Source: Fidelibacterota bacterium (GTDB lineage Bacteria; Fidelibacterota; Fidelibacteria; Fidelibacterales; Fidelibacteraceae). Taken from it: a DNA stretch of 18,765 nucleotides. The stretch is taken from assembly GCA_034723415.1 (NCBI GenBank), contig JAYEOX010000038.1:1-18765 (forward strand), written 5' to 3'. The position numbers were made by a program, and so were the translations under genes. Below, one piece after another: positions 9,840 through 18,711 of this stretch (position 1 is the stretch's first letter; every line of letters begins with the position of its first letter). The notes under the pieces are model-generated. The model did not search any database. It had not been told where the DNA came from and saw nothing but the letters and a program-made list of their open reading frames with translations.

Positions 9840-10135
9840 TATGGATTTATATACTGTTATATGAACCTTTTTAAAGAATTTTATTCGTATAGTGGGAAGT
9901 TATATGTAATAGTTTCATTAATTAGATAAATAAAAAGGAATTTAAAAAGGTTTAAAATCTTCATTACCTCTAAACAGGAACAGGATAAGATTGCTAATAT
10001 AATGGAAAAAGTAAATAATAAAATATAGCTGATTGAAAAGAAAAAAACTGGAAGAACTATTTATATCAATTAATGACAGGGCAAACGAAAGTGAATGAGT
10101 TGAAATTTGAGAAAATAAAAGAGGAGATAAATTAA
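9840..10135 (+). pseudogene. hsdS: Decayed 3' remnant of a type I restriction-modification specificity subunit
   Basis: Fragments across frames: YGFIYCYMN, INKKEFKK, FKIFITSKQEQDKIANIMEKVNNKI*LIEKKK (TAG at 10026), [29 protein letters not shown]. These match the conserved HsdS C-terminus (IPLPPLEEQxKIAxIL..D.KI...LEEL...QLxTGxIRV). The TAA at 10133-10135 overlaps the next ATG. Confidence 0.8.
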
Positions 10136-11931
10136 TGTCTATTCAACAATATTCTGTAAATCAACATCCAATTCAAACATTATTAACTTGGATTGAATCG
10201 GGTGCGATCGCAATACCGGAGATTCAAAGACCATTTGTATGGAACGGAGTAAAAGTAAGAGATTTATTAGATTCTCTCTATCAGGGCTATCCTGTGGGAT
10301 ATCTAATTGCTTGGAGAAATCCTACAGTTAAATTAAAAGATGGAACTACATCAACAGGTAAAAGAATTCTCATTGATGGTCAGCAGCGTGTTACTGCTTT
10401 AATGACAGCTATTTTAGGAAGAAGAATAATTGATAAAGATTATCATAGAAGAACCATTAAAATTGCTTTTCATCCTGAAAAAAGAAAATTTGAAGTTTCT
10501 AATCCAGCTATTCAGAAAGACAAAGTTTGGTTATCAGATATATCAAAAGTGTTATCTCCGGAATTGAAGATGTTGAAATTTGTGAGAGAATATTGTGAAA
10601 TAAATCCAGATTCGGATCAGGACAATATTTATGAGAGCATAGAACTTCTACGAGGAATTATTAATAACCATATTGGTTTAATTGAACTAAATTCTGACTT
10701 AGACATAGAAACAGTAACTGAGATATTTATACGAAGTAATTCAAAAGGAGTTGTTTTGAGTCAGGCTGATTTTGCTATGTCAAAAATTGCATCAAATGAA
10801 ACTTATGGAGGAAATGAACTTCGTAAATGTATAGATTATTTTTGTCATTTGGCTGTTGCACCGGAATTTCATGAAACTTTGAAAGATTTGGACAAAGATT
10901 TTTCTCAAACTTTATATTTTCAAAAAATGTCTTGGCTCAAAAACGAAAATGATGATATTTATGATCCATCCTATACAGATATGCTTCGTGTTGCTTTTAC
11001 TTCTGAATTCAAGAGAGGTAGATTACAGGTTTTAGTTGCCTTACTATCAGGTAGGAATTTTGAAACACGAGAATATGAAGATACAATTGCAGAAAGTTCT
11101 TTTAAGCTTCTGAAAAAAGGAATATTCAATTTTATGAATGAAATAAATTTCAAACGATTCGTTATGATAATACGTTCGGCCGGATTTGTTGAGTCCTCGA
11201 TGATAAGATCTCAAAACGTAATAAACTTTGCTTATATTGTTTATCTTACTTTACGTTCACAAAACATAAACCAAGCCTTAATCGGATCTTATGTAAGAAA
11301 ATGGTTAGTTTTATCAATATTAACAAGACGATATTCAAGTTCACCGGAATCTCAATTTGATTTTGACATAAAGAAAATTGATGAAATTGGGTTTGAGAAT
11401 TATTTAGAACAAGTGACCAGTGCTGAATTATCTGATGCGTTTTGGGATTTTGGTTTACCACAACAATTTAATACTTCAGTTGCAAGCAGCCCTTATTTCA
11501 ATGTTTACTTAGCGGCACAAGTAAAGCTTAATGATAAAGGATTTCTATCTAAAGATATTTCTGTTAAAGATTTAGTTACTCATAGAGGTGACATTCACCA
11601 TATATTTCCACGAGATTATTTGAAACAACATGGTCTGACTCGTGGTAGATATAATCAGATTGCAAATTATGTAATTATGCAAAGTGAAATAAATATCTCT
11701 ATTGGCAATAAATCTCCGGATATCTATTTTAAAACAATTTTAGACCAATGTAATGGTGGTGGTTTGAAATACGGTGGAATTACAAAAAAATCTGAGCTTA
11801 AGGAAAATTTCGAAATGAATTGTATTCCAGATGGAATGGAAGAAAAAAACATTGATGATTATGAAGATTTTTTACTTCAAAGAAGAAAATTAATTTCACA
11901 GAAAATTAAAGATTATTATCAAAAGATATAA
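10135..11931 (+). CDS. DUF262-domain GmrSD-like protein (putative modification-dependent type IV restriction endonuclease)
   Basis: DUF262 motifs [19 protein letters not shown] and [10 protein letters not shown]-terminal His-Me finger-like DIHHIFPR...NQIANY...EIN. RBS GAGGAG at 10121-10126. Confidence 0.85.
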
Positions 11932-11933
11932 TT

Positions 11934-11995
11934 ATGGCAGGTCCAATAGAACATAGATCAGTTCAAAGCAGAATTTTATAATATTTAAAAAAATC
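11934..11995 (+). pseudogene. hsdR: Probable 5' remnant of a type I restriction subunit R
   Basis: ATG two bases after the DUF262 stop gives MAGPIEHRSVQSRIL*YLKK, resembling HsdR N-termini of the type MPxPxEHKTVQARILxYA (recalled, not searched). In-frame TAA at 11979 and abrupt truncation. The position fits an hsdS-DUF262-hsdR order. Confidence 0.55.
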
Positions 11996-12007
11996 GACCA
12001 ATAAACA

Positions 12008-12059
12008 ATAAACACAAAAATAATTTTTATATTAAAATGAATATATTTTTTGTAAATTA
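12008..12059 (+). repeat. Direct repeat A, copy 1 (52 bp, identical to 12978-13029)
   Basis: ATAAACACAAAAATAATTTTTATATTAAAATGAATATATTTTTTGTAAATTA. Weaker similarity continues to about 12077. Confidence 0.97.
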
Positions 12060-12106
12060 GATAATTAGGAAATAGGTTTTTTTATTATCAAAATGAGAGA
12101 TAAATT

Positions 12107-12943
12107 ATGGATAGACAAGATAAAATTCAACTTTTTCAAAAGCAAAAAGTAAGAACGCATTGGGATGAAAATGAAGAGAAATGGTATTTTTCAGTTGTAG
12201 ATGTGATTGAGGTTTTGACTGATAGCCCAAGACCACGGAAATACTGGAATGCCCTAAAAACCAAGTTAAAAGAGGAAGGAAGTGAGTTGTCCCAAAAATT
12301 AGGACAACTGAAAATGCAATCATCTGATGGTAAATTTTATAAAACAGATGTGCTTGATACAGAAAATTTATTACGACTTATTCAATCAATTCCATCACCC
12401 AAAGCAGAACCTTTTAAATTGTGGTTGGCAAAAGTGGGTTATGAGCGGATTGAAGAGACCGAAGATCCTGAACTTGCTTTTGATAGAGCGATGGAAACCT
12501 ACTTAAAAAAAGGTTATTCTAAAGAGTGGATAAATCAACGATTAAAAAGTATAGAAGTCAGAAAAGAACTTACAGATGAATGGGATACAAGAGGTGTTAA
12601 AAAAGGTTTGGAATATGCCATACTTACCAATGAAATTACTGAAGCATGGAGTGGCCTGGATGTAAAAAATTATAAAAAATATAAAGGATTAAAGAAAGAA
12701 AATTTAAGAGATAATATGAGTAATCTTGAATTAGTTCTTAATATGTTAGCAGAAGCAACAACAAGCGAAATCAGCAAAGAGAAAATGCCAAAAAATTTTG
12801 ATGAAAATAAAGTAGTTGCTAAAGAAGGTGGCACTATTGCCGGAAATACAAGAAAAGAAATTGAGACGAAAACCGGAAAAAAAGTTGTGACAAAGCTCTC
12901 TACTAAGAAATTTTTAGAAAATAATAAGAAGAAAAAAAGTTGA
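12107..12943 (+). CDS. Bro-N domain (phage antirepressor-like) DNA-binding protein
   Basis: N-terminal KVRTHWDENEEKWYFSVVDVIEVLTDS...YW..LK.KL, LRLIQSIPSPKAEPFKLWLA, and C-terminal KGLKKENLRDNMS.LEL. Confidence 0.85.
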   Translation: MDRQDKIQLFQKQKVRTHWDENEEKWYFSVVDVIEVLTDSPRPRKYWNALKTKLKEEGSELSQKLGQLKMQSSDGKFYKTDVLDTENLLRLIQSIPSPKAEPFKLWLAKVGYERIEETEDPELAFDRAMETYLKKGYSKEWINQRLKSIEVRKELTDEWDTRGVKKGLEYAILTNEITEAWSGLDVKNYKKYKGLKKENLRDNMSNLELVLNMLAEATTSEISKEKMPKNFDENKVVAKEGGTIAGNTRKEIETKTGKKVVTKLSTKKFLENNKKKKS

Positions 12944-12977
12944 TTAAAATTTTCAATATCTTATTCTTAAAATATTC

Positions 12978-13029
12978 ATAAACACAAAAATAATTTTTAT
13001 ATTAAAATGAATATATTTTTTGTAAATTA
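12978..13029 (+). repeat. Direct repeat A, copy 2 (nadE upstream region)
   Basis: Identical to 12008-12059 at an offset of 970 bp, ending 23 nt before the nadE ATG. Confidence 0.97.
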
Positions 13030-13052
13030 TATAAATAAAAATTAGGTGATCT

Positions 13053-14663
13053 ATGAAAAATATAAAAACAGCAATTGCACAGAAGAACTTCACAGTTGGC
13101 GATTTGAGAGGAAATTCAAAAATTATTATTGATTCAATTGAAAATGCGAAGAAGAATAATGTTGAAATTGTAGTTTTTCCTGAACTCTCTGTAACCGGAT
13201 ATTTTCCCAAAGATCTACTATTTAACAAACAATTTATTGAAGATAATTTGAAATATTTAGACAAAATCGTAAACTCTTGTGATTTAATAACCGCTTTGGT
13301 TGGATTTGTTAATAAAATTGAGGATGATATTTATAATTCCATTGCAGTTATCCAAAATAGAAAAATTGTAAAAATAATTCATAAAACAAATCTATCAATT
13401 GATGAAAAAAGATATTTTGCACAAAATGAAGATATTAAACCGGTAAATATAAAAATTAAAGATCAAAATGTTAAAATTGGAATTGAAATATCTGAAGATT
13501 TTGAAAATAATGAAAATAAAATAGATATAACTAGAAAACTTGCTGAAAATGGAGCGGAAGTAATATTTTGTTGTAGTGCTTCACCATATTATTTTAATAA
13601 ATTAGAAAAGAAACAAAAATATATTTCAAATAATGCAAAAGAGAATAATTTATCGATCATTTACACTAATTTAGTTGGCGGACAGGATGATCTGATCTAT
13701 GATGGAAATAGTTTTGCAGTTGATGAATATGGAAATATTTTAGCTGTTTGTAAAGGTCATAAAGAGGAGATAAAGTATTTTAAAATTGGGAATACTAATA
13801 AGATTTTGTCCTTTCCAAAGATAAATAAAATGGAAGAATTGTATAATTCGCTCGTTCTTGGAATTTCTGATTATTTTCGTAAAACAGGTTTCAAAGAGGC
13901 GATTTTGGGCTTGAGTGGTGGAATTGATTCTGCGTTGGTTGCAGTTTTGGTATCGGAAGCGATCGGTAGCGAAAATGTTTATTGTTACGCTTTGCCGTCT
14001 GAATTTAGCAGCAATCATTCTATTGAAGATTCCGAAAAATTAGCAAAGATTTTGGGAATAAACTATACGGAAATTTCGATAAAGAATAGTTATAATAATT
14101 TATTGAATACATTAGGAAAAGAATTTGAAGGAACGGAATTTGGAATTGCAGAAGAGAATCTACAAGCAAGAATTAGAGGGACGCTCTTAATGTCAATTGC
14201 AAATAAATTCGATCGTTTGGTGCTTACAACAGGAAATAAAACTGAAATTAATTTGGGATATTTTACTTTATATGGTGATTCTGCCGGAGCTCTGGCACCA
14301 ATTAGTGATTTAAATAAACTTGAAGTTTATGCTCTTTCAAATTATATAAATAAGAGATCCGAAAAAGAAATAATTCCACAAAATATAATTACTAAAAAAC
14401 CATCTGCAGAATTAAAAAATGGTCAATATGATCCATTTGATTATGAAATAGTCAGTCCATTGGTTGATGAAATCATTAATAACAATAGAAGTAAAAATGA
14501 ATTGCTGAAGTTAGGATATAATAAAAAATTGATTGATGAGGTTATTGAATTAATAAGGAAATCTGAATATAAAAGACATCAACTCGTTACAGGATTGAAA
14601 GTTTCAGAAACGATGGTTCATAAAGATAGAAAAATGCCGATCGTAAATAAATATACTTTTTAA
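13053..14663 (+). CDS. nadE: NAD+ synthetase with two-domain (glutamine-dependent type) architecture; glutaminase nucleophile Cys replaced by Ser
   Basis: Nitrilase-fold N-domain (FPELSVTGY, NLVGGQDDLIYDGNS) and synthetase domain (GLSGGIDSA, ENLQARIRG, TGNKTE, GY.TLYGD, PSAEL...Q.D). Confidence 0.95.
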   Translation: MKNIKTAIAQKNFTVGDLRGNSKIIIDSIENAKKNNVEIVVFPELSVTGYFPKDLLFNKQFIEDNLKYLDKIVNSCDLITALVGFVNKIEDDIYNSIAVIQNRKIVKIIHKTNLSIDEKRYFAQNEDIKPVNIKIKDQNVKIGIEISEDFENNENKIDITRKLAENGAEVIFCCSASPYYFNKLEKKQKYISNNAKENNLSIIYTNLVGGQDDLIYDGNSFAVDEYGNILAVCKGHKEEIKYFKIGNTNKILSFPKINKMEELYNSLVLGISDYFRKTGFKEAILGLSGGIDSALVAVLVSEAIGSENVYCYALPSEFSSNHSIEDSEKLAKILGINYTEISIKNSYNNLLNTLGKEFEGTEFGIAEENLQARIRGTLLMSIANKFDRLVLTTGNKTEINLGYFTLYGDSAGALAPISDLNKLEVYALSNYINKRSEKEIIPQNIITKKPSAELKNGQYDPFDYEIVSPLVDEIINNNRSKNELLKLGYNKKLIDEVIELIRKSEYKRHQLVTGLKVSETMVHKDRKMPIVNKYTF

Positions 14664-14675
14664 ATTTAAAGTTAA

Positions 14676-16841
14676 ATGAGAATCAGTACAAAAAAACGAA
14701 GTATTGATAACATATTTCAAAGAACACCGGTATTAAGTTTTTTGATATTATTTGTAATTGGTATTATTATTGCAAATTATTTTGAAATAAGTATGCTACT
14801 GATTTCATTGATTTTGGCTCTACTTTTAGGATTGACATTCATTACATCAATTAAAACTAACGATTATTTCTTTATCATTATAATTATTTTTGCGGGAATG
14901 TTGAGATTGACAATTACCGAAGAGATAATTTCAGATAAAAGAAAAATTGAAAATATACCTGATAAAGTAACTGTACAGATCAAAAAACTTAATACAAATC
15001 CATTTTATATTAAATCGTATAATTGTAATGTAAAATTTGAAAACAATTCATTTCAGTCGGTTTTATATCTAAAAAATAGTAAGCAAATATTAGCCGCCGG
15101 AAAAGAGTATGAAATTTCAAATATAAAAAGCGAAATAATTGAGTCCAATAATAATCCATTTGTTTTTGATTACAGAAGATATATGGAAGTAAATGGAATT
15201 ACACATACATCAAAGACAACAAAAAATTCACAAATTGTTGAAAAACAAATTTACAATCCTTTTTTATATTATTCTCAAAGATTCAGACGGAACATTTCAT
15301 CAAAAATAATTTCGGTTTATGGTATCAAAAAAGGGAGTTTATTAAACGGATTTTTGCTTGGATTGAAAAAAGAAATACCGGAAAATCTATCAAATTCTTT
15401 CAAAGATTTAGGAATTAGTCATTTACTCGCGGTTTCAGGATTACATGTTGGATTTATTGTTTTGTTGTTTTATCAGTTGTTTGTTTTTGTTTCCATTCCT
15501 AAGAAAACCAGAATAATTTTAATATTATTTTTAATGTTTGGTTATTGTTACATAATCGGATTTTCTGCTTCAATTGTCAGAGCTTCATTGATGATGGGTT
15601 TTTATCTTGTTTCGCCGCTTTTTAATCGAAAACATAATGCCTTAAATTCTGTAGCGAGCGCAGGTTTAATACTTTTATTATGGAATCCGATGACATTTTT
15701 TGATGTTGGTTTTCAATTCTCGTTTTCAGCTGTTTTTGGAATTATTTTGATCTATTCACGATTAAAAAGAATGATAAATTTTAATCCAAAAATAAAAATT
15801 ATTGAATATATTTACAACTTGATCTTGGTATCATTTTGTGCCGCACTTGCTACTGCTCCATTAAGTATTTATTATTTTGATGTGTTTAACTCATTGGCAA
15901 TTTTCGTAAATATTATTTTTATTCCACTAACATTTTTGATCCTAAGTTCTACGATTATTACTTTACCATTTTTATATTCTACTCATTTTTCCGCAAATCT
16001 TTTTATTAACGGATTAGATGCACTGATTACATTGTTTCTCAAGATGATTCAAGTTACAGATAATTTTTCATATTGGACTATTCACTTGTCGGAATATAAA
16101 GCAATTTTTATCACCGGAGTATTGATAATTTTCATTTTGATATTAGTAAAGAAGAGTAATTTTAGAAAATATTTATTATCATTTTTAATTGTTTTAGCTA
16201 TTGTTATTACTATTTGGAACAAGCAAGATGAAGTAATTACTTTTTCTTTAGAAAAGGGGAAAAGCGTATTAATAAAAAATTCAAGCAATTCTGTTTTAAT
16301 AAATACCGGTAATGCTTCATATTTTAATAATGATTTTGAGAAAACGATTAAACCGGTAATGGATAAATTAGCAGTTAAAAAAATAACGGTTATTGTTACA
16401 AAAATAAGTAAAGACCGTGCATATAATTTAGAAAAAGTGTTACATAATTACGAAGTGGAAAATATCTATTCTCCTGAAAAGTTAGATTATATTTCAGATG
16501 AAAAAGTTACAGTAATTAAAAACGATTCAACCGTAAATATAGGAAAAACAACTTATGACTTTTCTAAATCCACTTATTATGGCAAAGGATTGCTCAATGT
16601 ATCAGTGAATTTACATAACAAAAATTTATTAATTTATGAACACAATTTGCCACAATTAAAAAATAATACGATAATAGTTTCAAATACAAAAAGATTGAAT
16701 TTAGAAAAGCTGCCGAAAAATTCGGAATTAATTTATGTTACAAGGCAAGGAAAAAGTAAAGTTCCAAATGTCTATAACTTAAATAAAAACAGAGCAAAAA
16801 GATGTAAATTGATCTTTAATAAATGGATAAGTTTATTTTGA
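14676..16841 (+). CDS. comEC: ComEC/Rec2 competence DNA-uptake membrane protein with a degenerate C-terminal metallo-beta-lactamase domain
   Basis: NPFVFDYRRY, GISHLLAVSGLHVG, SIVRASLM, NP..FFDVGFQFSFSAV, and many transmembrane segments. Confidence 0.92.
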   Translation: MRISTKKRSIDNIFQRTPVLSFLILFVIGIIIANYFEISMLLISLILALLLGLTFITSIKTNDYFFIIIIIFAGMLRLTITEEIISDKRKIENIPDKVTVQIKKLNTNPFYIKSYNCNVKFENNSFQSVLYLKNSKQILAAGKEYEISNIKSEIIESNNNPFVFDYRRYMEVNGITHTSKTTKNSQIVEKQIYNPFLYYSQRFRRNISSKIISVYGIKKGSLLNGFLLGLKKEIPENLSNSFKDLGISHLLAVSGLHVGFIVLLFYQLFVFVSIPKKTRIILILFLMFGYCYIIGFSASIVRASLMMGFYLVSPLFNRKHNALNSVASAGLILLLWNPMTFFDVGFQFSFSAVFGIILIYSRLKRMINFNPKIKIIEYIYNLILVSFCAALATAPLSIYYFDVFNSLAIFVNIIFIPLTFLILSSTIITLPFLYSTHFSANLFINGLDALITLFLKMIQVTDNFSYWTIHLSEYKAIFITGVLIIFILILVKKSNFRKYLLSFLIVLAIVITIWNKQDEVITFSLEKGKSVLIKNSSNSVLINTGNASYFNNDFEKTIKPVMDKLAVKKITVIVTKISKDRAYNLEKVLHNYEVENIYSPEKLDYISDEKVTVIKNDSTVNIGKTTYDFSKSTYYGKGLLNVSVNLHNKNLLIYEHNLPQLKNNTIIVSNTKRLNLEKLPKNSELIYVTRQGKSKVPNVYNLNKNRAKRCKLIFNKWISLF

Positions 16842-16854
16842 GGGAAAGTAAAAT
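16771..16854 (+). repeat. Direct repeat B, copy 1 (last ~23 codons of comEC plus downstream RBS region)
   Basis: Aligns with 17517-17601 with 3 substitutions and 1 indel over about 85 nt. Confidence 0.97.
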
Positions 16855-16914
16855 ATCTTGAAATTATTTGGAAAATAATTATATTATCAATAAGTTTAGA
16901 TTAAATAAATAACA

Positions 16915-16943
16915 TAAACAAAAAATAATATTTGTGTTATAAT
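16915..16943 (+). promoter_or_regulatory. Probable promoter of the toxin-antitoxin operon (extended -10)
   Basis: TAAACA-N17-TATAAT with a perfect TGnTATAAT at 16935-16943, followed by RBS AAGGAG (16951-16956) and ATG at 16963. Confidence 0.65.
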
Positions 16944-16962
16944 TAAGTGAAAGGAGAAAACA

Positions 16963-17181
16963 ATGAAAATAAAATTACCTTTAGATAAAATGACTATAGC
17001 AGAAAAGCTTCAGACCATGGAAACTATTTGGAATAACTTGATGCGTAGATCTGCTGAATTTCCAACACCTCCTTGGCATAAAGATATATTAAAAAAACGT
17101 GAAGAAAATATTATTAATAAGGAAGATCACTTTACTAGTTGGGAAAAAGCAAAAAAGAAAATAAGAAATACGGTTCAATGA
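16963..17181 (+). CDS. Addiction module antitoxin (TIGR02574-like putative addiction module component)
   Basis: 72 aa; LPLDKMTIAEKLQTMETIW...PPWHKDILKKRE...WEKAKKKIR. ATGA overlap with the downstream toxin. Confidence 0.85.
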   Translation: MKIKLPLDKMTIAEKLQTMETIWNNLMRRSAEFPTPPWHKDILKKREENIINKEDHFTSWEKAKKKIRNTVQ

Positions 17182-17471
17182 AAATCAAAATTCTTGAATC
17201 TGCTATAAACGATTTAATGGATGGATATTGGTTTTATAAAAATCAACTAGATGGATTGGGTAATTATTTCCTTGATTCTTTGTTTTCTGATATTGATTCG
17301 TTAACTATTTATGCCGGCATTCATTCCAAATATTTAAATAAATATCATAAAATGCTTTCAAAACGTTTTCCTTTTGCAATATATTATAAAGTGGAAAATG
17401 AAATAGTGCTAATTTATGCTGTTCTTGACTGTAGAAGAAATCCTGGATTTGTAAAAGATAAATTAACTTAA
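17178..17471 (+). CDS. RelE/ParE family type II toxin
   Basis: MKIKILESAINDLMDGYWFY..Q..GLGNYFLDSL...KRFPFAIYY....VLIYAVLDCRRNP. The likely start is the ATG at 17178, overlapping the antitoxin TGA, rather than 17139. Confidence 0.88.
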   Translation: MKIKILESAINDLMDGYWFYKNQLDGLGNYFLDSLFSDIDSLTIYAGIHSKYLNKYHKMLSKRFPFAIYYKVENEIVLIYAVLDCRRNPGFVKDKLT

Positions 17472-17516
17472 GCATTAATCTAATTTAATAAATTTTTTGA
17501 AATTAAATCAAAAATA

Positions 17517-17601
17517 TCTATAACTTAAATAAAAACAGAGCAAAAAGATGGAAATTGATCTTTAATAAATGGGTGAGTTTATTTTGAGGGAAAGGTAAAA
17601 T
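17517..17601 (+). repeat. Direct repeat B, copy 2 (orphan copy of the comEC 3' end carrying the rnhB RBS and start)
   Basis: Translates as YNLNKNRAKRWKLIFNKWVSLF* versus comEC YNLNKNRAKRCKLIFNKWISLF*, and runs into the rnhB ATG at 17600. Confidence 0.97.
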
Positions 17602-18568
17602 GAGTAATCAATTAATAGAATTCGACAAGAATAAATCAAAAAACATAGACTATCTCGCCGGAATAGATGAAGCTGGAAGAGGACCGTTAGCCGGACCTGT
17701 TACAGCTGCTGCTGTAATAATTGAGAAAGAAAATGATCTGATAAATGATTCCAAAAAACTCTCAGAAAAGAAGCGAGAAAAAGCTTATAAATGGATAACA
17801 GAAAATGCTGTGAGTTGGGCTGTAGCATCGGTAGGAATTAAAAAGATTGATGAGATAAATATTCTAAATGCGAGTTTGTTGGCAATGGAAAAGGCAGTTA
17901 GTAAACTAAAAGTTACTCCACAAAAATGTTTGATCGACGGCAACAGAATTCCTAAAAATATGAACAACGCAGAAGCTGTGATAAAGGGAGATAAAATATC
18001 ATATTGCATTGCAGCAGCTTCAATAATTGCAAAAGTTACGCGTGATAATATTATGAAAAAGTGGCACAAAGTTTACAAAGAATATCATTTTGATAAACAT
18101 AAAGGATACGGTACGAAGTTACATTTAAAAGCAATTGAAGAATATTTTCCAACACCGCTTCATCGCTTGAGCTTTGCACCCGTAAGTGCCTTTAAATTCC
18201 CGCCTTATCCTAATAGAATTAAACTTGGTAAATGGGGCGAAAATTGGGCGATCTATTATTTGATTCATAAAGGATATAAATTCGTTCAACGAAATTATTT
18301 TGCCGGTAAGTTTGGAGAGATCGACATTATTATGAAGAAAAACGAAAGATACATTTTCGTTGAAGTGAAGACAAGAGGTCCAAAAGATCATTATGATGTT
18401 GTAGAATCGATAACAAGAGCAAAAGTCAGCAAGATGTTAAAGTGTTCAGACCATTATTTTTATAATAGAAAGATAGATGAATTTGAAGTTGGATTTGATG
18501 CCATAATTGTAAATGCAAAGAATTGGCAAAAACCGGAAATAGAACATTTTGAGGATATTAATTATTAG
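17600..18568 (+). CDS. rnhB: Ribonuclease HII fused to a C-terminal YraN (UPF0102) PD-(D/E)xK nuclease-like domain
   Basis: AGIDEAGRGPLAGPV, DSKKL, IDGN, IAAASIIAKVTRD, HKGYGT, HRLSF, then GKWGENWA..YL..KGY....RNY...GEIDII...IFVEVKTR. Confidence 0.93.
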   Translation: MSNQLIEFDKNKSKNIDYLAGIDEAGRGPLAGPVTAAAVIIEKENDLINDSKKLSEKKREKAYKWITENAVSWAVASVGIKKIDEINILNASLLAMEKAVSKLKVTPQKCLIDGNRIPKNMNNAEAVIKGDKISYCIAAASIIAKVTRDNIMKKWHKVYKEYHFDKHKGYGTKLHLKAIEEYFPTPLHRLSFAPVSAFKFPPYPNRIKLGKWGENWAIYYLIHKGYKFVQRNYFAGKFGEIDIIMKKNERYIFVEVKTRGPKDHYDVVESITRAKVSKMLKCSDHYFYNRKIDEFEVGFDAIIVNAKNWQKPEIEHFEDINY

Positions 18569-18624
18569 AATGCTTTGTATAACTAAACCAAATAATAAGA
18601 ATCAAAATAAAATAATAAAAATGT

Positions 18625-18654
18625 TTAGAAGGTTAGAAGGTTAGAAGGTTAGAA
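18625..18654 (+). repeat. 8-bp tandem repeat (TTAGAAGG) x3.75
   Basis: TTAGAAGG TTAGAAGG TTAGAAGG TTAGAA read directly. Confidence 0.95.
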
Positions 18655-18711
18655 ACGATATCAAAATCCTAAAATAAAAATTTCAGAAATGATAAAATAG
18701 AGTTTAGATAG

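Follow-up and report, generated by a model that had tools for sequence, protein, structure and literature searches.

Long direct repeats of host sequence around a Bro-N gene and a putative toxin–antitoxin module in a Fidelibacterota bacterium: insertion with long target duplication carrying new cargo

Introduction

Many chromosomal toxin–antitoxin (TA) and defence genes lie outside recognisable mobile elements, and the route by which they arrive is an open question. One described route is insertion with long target duplication, to which Nobusato et al. (2000) is reportedly tied. The scar left by such an insertion is a duplication of more than 30 bp around an insert of less than 20 kb, with no other mobile element, and examples include unique repeats of 46 bp; the repeats often span start or stop codons, which leaves the target gene intact, and the species concerned are mostly competent ones (PMC2853133). 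Long duplications also arise in E. coli, where RecA-dependent single crossovers of circularised fragments give duplications of 109–950 bp (PMC3240628), and around the insertion sequences IS1549/IS1634, which carry a transposase and are flanked by variable target direct repeats of 8–514 bp (PMC2266710). In an 18,765-nt stretch of the genome of a Fidelibacterota bacterium (GCA_034723415.1, contig JAYEOX010000038.1), hereafter the window, a Bro-N domain gene and a putative TA module are each bounded by long direct repeats of host sequence, and we compare these two cassettes with the systems above.

The cassettes are a real example, with good support, of a scar that is already known and whose cargo here is new; they do not represent a new insertion system and give no evidence of a new enzyme or tool. 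Each block is probably an accessory insertion with long target duplication that arose through the host's general recombination or repair and not through an enzyme of the element's own, with RecA single-crossover capture of a homology patch on donor DNA as the likely route. Throughout the text, G000 denotes the window's own genome, the metagenome-derived assembly of a brine bacterium; G001, G002 and G003 are congener genomes, L041 and L042 are metagenome contigs, and C-numbers designate contigs, of G000 unless stated otherwise.

Results

Two cassettes bounded by copies of host gene junctions

Repeat 1 has an exact core of 52 bp (12008–12059 and 12978–13029, at a spacing of 970) and extends to 70 bp at 93% identity (12008–12077 and 12978–13047). 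Repeat 2 (16766–16854 and 17512–17601, at a spacing of 746) aligns over 90 columns at 94.4% identity. The original prediction, made from the window sequence alone, had put the two repeats at 52 and about 85 bp; both exist, and repeat 1 is longer than it stated. It had also described each repeat as a copy of the local host junction rather than a shared att-like element, with host genes that keep their expression signals and no transposase, integrase or convincing terminal inverted repeat nearby, and all of this agrees with what we found.

Repeat 1 consists of the region upstream of nadE. Its right copy is the working nadE upstream region, while the left copy now lies 5' of the Bro-N gene. In the congener G003, the match to the right copy starts at 12967 and runs 11 bases further upstream than that of the left copy, so the left copy has probably been clipped. 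A promoter-like site at 12009–12038 in the left copy is a consensus match only (8 sites found against 6.2 in shuffles). The single open reading frame (ORF) enclosed in this 970-bp unit encodes a Bro-N domain protein of 278 aa (12107–12943; PF02498, E = 2e-11). A paralogue that is 74% identical lies on contig C145, and Bro-N is present in 9 of the 33 family genomes.

Repeat 2 comprises the final 76 nt of comEC and the rnhB ribosome-binding site, and ends at the rnhB start codon. The left copy supplies the working comEC 3' end with its stop codon, followed by an unused copy of the ribosome-binding site that is one base shorter. Conversely, the right copy contains an untranslated copy of the comEC end and the working rnhB ribosome-binding site. 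Between them lie a gene for an addiction-module antitoxin of 72 aa (16963–17181; PF09720, above cut-off at E = 5e-13) and a 97-aa ORF (17178–17471) that falls into RelE/ParE clusters of the ESM Atlas with a score of 0.96. Neither Pfam nor NCBIfam names the 97-aa ORF, and its sole match in the PDB is ParE2 at E = 0.14. The antitoxin gene overlaps the downstream ParE/RelE-like toxin gene, as in a type II layout, with the identity of the toxin taken from the ESM Atlas only. This cargo is a putative type II TA module made up of a PF09720 antitoxin and a ParE-like toxin. The antitoxin family occurs in 2 of the 33 family genomes. A promoter-like site with an extended -10 element lies within the cassette, 5' of the antitoxin gene (16915–16943; 10/12 consensus match plus TG), and serves as a lead only, with 9 sites found against 6.2 in shuffles. 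A retro-copied mRNA is an unlikely origin for this cassette, which includes about 100 bp 5' of the start codon together with the promoter-like site. Other contigs matched the TA leader, but only through AT-rich intergenic similarity.

The repeats are genuine features of the genome

We confirmed that the repeats, and the insertion scars that they form, are real. Repeat pairs of this kind number 285 in the genome and 0 in each of three local block shuffles. Repeats 1 and 2 are unrelated to each other in sequence, and each is present in two copies genome-wide. For population data we used assembled contigs from four public brine-metagenome runs of one study; no RNA run was listed as carrying the sequence. 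These contigs cover both cargos, and their breaks fall inside both repeats. Contigs carrying the TA module are 1.2–1.5 times as deep as the flanks in three of the four runs, a weak hint of activity of the circle route considered below. In addition, runs X1 and X4 each contain a contig that leads from 16847 back to 16658 (190 bases) with other sequence in between, and that may represent a further allele in which the duplication is longer and the cargo different.

Empty and alternatively filled sites in relatives

At the site of the TA cassette, comEC and rnhB are adjacent, with a single copy of the repeat, in the congeners G001 and G003 and in the metagenome contigs L041 and L042. The two contigs, which are identical over the comEC-end stretch, are the only loci returned by a metagenome scan with ComEC, and both are empty. 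In G002, the comEC–rnhB junction (L004:1234–1500) is occupied by 265 bp of filler that encodes an unclassified ORF of 64 aa and is not accompanied by a long repeat.

The nadE site differs among the congeners. In G003 the 52-bp core occurs once, a short distance from the upstream end of the contig, and just downstream of it another cargo is inserted: a dead nadE start is followed by an Abi_2 gene and this in turn by the nadE start that works. The Abi_2 gene is an independent insertion with its own shifted and decayed duplication. In G002, nadE has a different neighbour.

Similar cassettes at other sites of the genome and in the genus

We listed all repeats of G000 that occur in two copies and have an ORF between them. 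Of the 31 rows, 17 come from the repeat-rich contig C1 and were set aside. The remaining 14 include a TA pair on contig C37, an MNT-HEPN pair between 49-bp repeats and, between repeats of 171 bp, a Fic gene that follows glycyl-tRNA synthetase, while some other rows may be plain paralogue remnants. The C37 cassette (C37:15796–16629) is a second PF09720/ParE-like module, with 79-bp repeats at 87% identity and a clean empty site in G001, and its toxin is 27% identical to that of the window. The window and C37 thus provide two clean TA examples with empty sites. When empty sites were reconstructed for 16 cassettes of G000, four were continuous with the fetched part of G001, namely the two TA cassettes and those on C39 and C133.

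The fetched part of G001 comprised the first 20 kb of each of 140 of its approximately 160 contigs (1.43 Mb). It contains 15 repeat rows, whose cargo includes AAA-DUF4143, Fic, HNH, AbiEii, ORF6N and Bro-N genes and some housekeeping genes. Similar cassettes therefore occur both in G000, as had been anticipated, and in a congener. Relatives of the Bro-N gene elsewhere have unrelated long repeats of their own in 3 of 7 gene copies, at 2 of 6 loci. Across cassettes, repeat lengths range from 38 to more than 200 bp, and the sequences are unrelated. A separate arrangement of Bro-N genes is found in G003 (L035:610–3999), where an ORF6N gene and two near-identical Bro-N genes form a stack; the separators are 90–140 bp copies of the upstream region of the downstream host gene, accompanied by 7-base tandem repeats.

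To place these scars among other differences, we compared G000 with the fetched part of G001, the closest congener fetched, and found 71 insertions or deletions, 64 of which were clean after seven containing N were dropped. At a threshold of 39 bits, 4 of the 64 carry a repeat, two of them being the TA cassettes, while a control at 40 bits or more gave 1 of 143 gene flanks. The other 60 lack a repeat of at least 39 bits, and several of these have accessory-looking cargo. With only these four carrying a repeat, genes are usually gained or lost in some other way than with a long-duplication scar.

Donor patch or true duplication

The original prediction offered two routes, Campbell-style integration of circles and a trans-acting duplication of the target. 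The first, with a homology patch, is the mechanism best supported by our data and the one we consider probable; we infer the donor origin of one copy, the circular intermediate and the dependence on RecA. Donor DNA from a related cell would carry the cargo beside a short stretch of a host gene end or promoter. After entering the cell, this DNA would circularise, or it would already have been excised as a circle from a donor having the repeats. One RecA crossover within the 70–170 bp patch would then integrate it, giving a patch–cargo–patch product with a variable repeat length and no special ends. Inserts whose patch covers a stop codon, ribosome-binding site or promoter would survive because both host genes stay complete, and their position at starts, stops and promoters is most simply explained by selection. 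TA addiction opposes the loss of TA-bearing DNA, and in the TA cassettes addiction would resist loss by the reverse crossover. The genes recA, dprA and comEC are present in G000. The patch model leaves unexplained how cargo and patch were initially joined in an illegitimate event.

RecA single-crossover capture is favoured because the copies in some pairs appear to differ like working alleles, a pattern that favours a donor patch. If a fresh copy were later to decay, the differences would spread over the codon positions. In the glycyl-tRNA synthetase/Fic case (C105), 15 of 20 differences fall at third codon positions (p = 2e-4), as do 11 of 15 in one pair on C14 (p = 2e-3) and 35 of 62 over nine pairs. 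In the window, the untranslated comEC copy differs by three amino acids, all of which occur in a set of five congener sequences; among random single changes, the same holds for 9 of 182. The single-copy empty sites, the different cargo at nadE in G003, the unrelated repeats around Bro-N relatives and the variable repeat lengths also speak for this explanation, which has a laboratory precedent in E. coli (PMC3240628).

Several observations weigh against the donor-patch explanation. The nine pairs of the codon-position test were picked by eye, and those on C14 and C41 have no demonstrated empty site; C41 (3 of 9) and a second C14 pair (3 of 10) show no third-position bias. The comEC pattern could also have arisen if the working copy changed after a true duplication, and the exact 52-bp core of repeat 1 fits a fresh target duplication equally well, as do the nearly or fully identical repeats of other cassettes (44 bp at 100%, 49 bp at 98% and 89 bp at 99%). 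For RecA to recombine them efficiently, patches of 50–90 bp are short. The population contigs showed no circle junction, and no joint that skips or goes back 746 or 970 bases is listed; identical runs of 34 and 52 bp break such contigs inside the repeats anyway, so they are uninformative on clean excision, circles and empty alleles. None of the 15 repeat pairs of G001 gave a continuous empty site in G000. Finally, the Bro-N cassette has no exact empty site among the sequences compared, in which the fetched part of G001 did not include nadE; the empty sites predicted for relatives are borne out at comEC–rnhB.

A true target duplication within one cell is a possible but rather doubtful alternative. 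During the repair of a break or a switch of replication template, the cell would take up foreign DNA at the break and synthesis would restart 50–170 bp upstream, so that both copies are recipient DNA that later diverges by mutation. Exact or near-exact repeats in several cassettes are consistent with such a process, and the two C37 copies are each most congener-like on their host-facing side, as relaxed selection predicts. The genome also encodes break-making nucleases (GmrSD in the window), and the discussion by the Kobayashi group suggests double-strand breakage (PMC2853133). However, the third-position excess in C105 and C14 requires that coding selection once acted on both copies. With allele-like differences of this kind, strain-level data can test donor patch against true duplication.

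An extension of the donor-patch mechanism, which we consider unlikely, is a general gene-capture route, either enzyme-independent or host-encoded, in which TA, Bro-N, Fic and Abi genes travel on small circles that can excise and that carry a host-junction patch. At this junction the circles would enter related genomes anew, and they would accumulate in arrays such as the one in G003 (L035). If true, this circle route would give chromosomal defence and addiction genes a mobility cycle that has so far gone unrecognised and that operates in the population.

Search for dedicated machinery

Movement of the cassettes in trans, as non-autonomous units of a long-duplication transposase of the IS1549/IS1634 type, is very unlikely. 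Such elements exist (PMC2266710), and one unclassified DDE transposase (PF01609, the only transposase family searched) is encoded on contig C57 of G000. However, no repeat was found around this gene, and PF01609 has no match in any of four congeners, at least two of which carry scars. The two window cassettes have no terminal inverted repeats (shuffle p = 0.46 and 0.37), and only 4 of 24 cassettes reach p ≤ 0.05 under a liberal shuffle. Likewise, comparison of the inner ends across the 24 cassettes gave 1 and 2 of 276 pairs at p ≤ 0.01, about what chance would give. No shared att-like element and no conserved cassette ends were found across these cassettes.

Integron-type or other site-specific integration by a tyrosine recombinase encoded elsewhere is extremely unlikely. 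The genome has five matches to the tyrosine recombinase family PF00589, but the repeats share no sequence between sites, and the targets are gene ends and promoters rather than a common att site. In a search of both strands with an attC core motif, neither the cassettes of the window nor that on C37 had a core pair. Within the window itself, neither the ORF list nor a Pfam scan of 10 ORFs revealed a mobility enzyme.

Two tyrosine recombinase loci in G000 are described here in their own right. On C43, two 285-bp copies (1–282 and 2297–2575) that include a tyrosine recombinase 3' end flank two housekeeping-like genes and adjoin a Fic-like gene. On C135 (27957–29030), a tyrosine recombinase is split over two ORFs, the second of which continues into unrelated C-terminal sequence.

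An assembly artefact is scarcely credible: the genome is a metagenome assembly that does contain scaffold repeats, but these are perfect 127-bp repeats at a spacing of 227 and differ from the window repeats, whose copies differ from one another, are broken within by contigs of four runs that also cover both cargos, and have matching empty sites in congeners.

Gene order and host genes of the window

All genes of the region lie on the forward strand, in the order gmrSD, repeat 1, bro-N, repeat 1, nadE, comEC (whose end lies in repeat 2), antitoxin, toxin, repeat 2 and rnhB-yraN. The host genes are nadE, encoding a glutamine-dependent NAD synthetase (13053–14663; PF02540 and PF00795), the competence gene comEC (14676–16841; PF03772), and rnhB fused to UPF0102/YraN (17600–18568; PF01351 and PF02021). 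The RNase HII–UPF0102/YraN nuclease fusion is in frame, and most of its 322 residues are matched in most of the 41 genomes searched. At the 3' end of rnhB (18555–18660) lies an intergenic element with short tandem 8-mers, which has many copies in G000 and G003.

Upstream of repeat 1 lies a GmrSD-family gene (10135–11931; PF03235, E = 2e-29). In all four runs, the contigs covering it (9867–12037) have approximately half the depth of the adjoining contigs, depth being a weak measure, and they end inside repeat 1. Around this gene we found only short AT-rich direct matches, the best of 16/17 bases. The depth hints that the gmrSD region is probably a further, later variable insertion carried by only part of the population.

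Comparison with known systems

The new dedicated gene-insertion system that had been proposed for these cassettes finds no support: the architecture is already published (PMC2853133), no shared termini were found among 24 cassettes, and the scar marks only 4 of the 64 clean insertions or deletions. In the literature outside subscription journals we found no TA-specific case of long target duplication, and the accessible part of PMC3874152 mentions only restriction-modification cases.

The cassettes resemble IS1549/IS1634 in their long, variable direct repeats copied from the target, but unlike these elements they have neither a transposase gene nor terminal inverted repeats (PMC2266710). They also resemble RecA single-crossover, homology-facilitated illegitimate recombination, with which they share one patch, one illegitimate joint, a variable duplication and the lack of a dedicated enzyme. 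That system, however, was a plasmid in laboratory conjugations of E. coli and had longer stretches of homology, whereas the repeats described here are natural, 70–90 bp long and read from sequence alone (PMC3240628).

The closest match is insertion with long target duplication as described by Furuta, Abe and Kobayashi (2010; PMC2853133). In agreement with that account, the duplications are 70 and 90 bp long and form pairs that are unique genome-wide, and the units of 970 and 746 bp contain only the Bro-N and TA ORFs, with no mobility gene. Relatives have a single-copy empty site, here for the TA cassette, and the repeats cross starts or stops such that the host genes survive, in a genome with competence genes. 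The differences are that the published cases concern restriction-modification genes, whereas the cargo here is a TA pair and Bro-N, Fic, Abi, ORF6N and AAA-DUF4143 genes, and that some copies resemble two working alleles. In an uncultured lineage, a scar known for restriction-modification genes is thereby extended to cargo of the TA, Bro-N, Fic and Abi kinds. The window cassettes are a variant of insertion with long target duplication, and agree with it in the features tested, the empty site being that of the TA cassette, except for the restriction-modification cargo.

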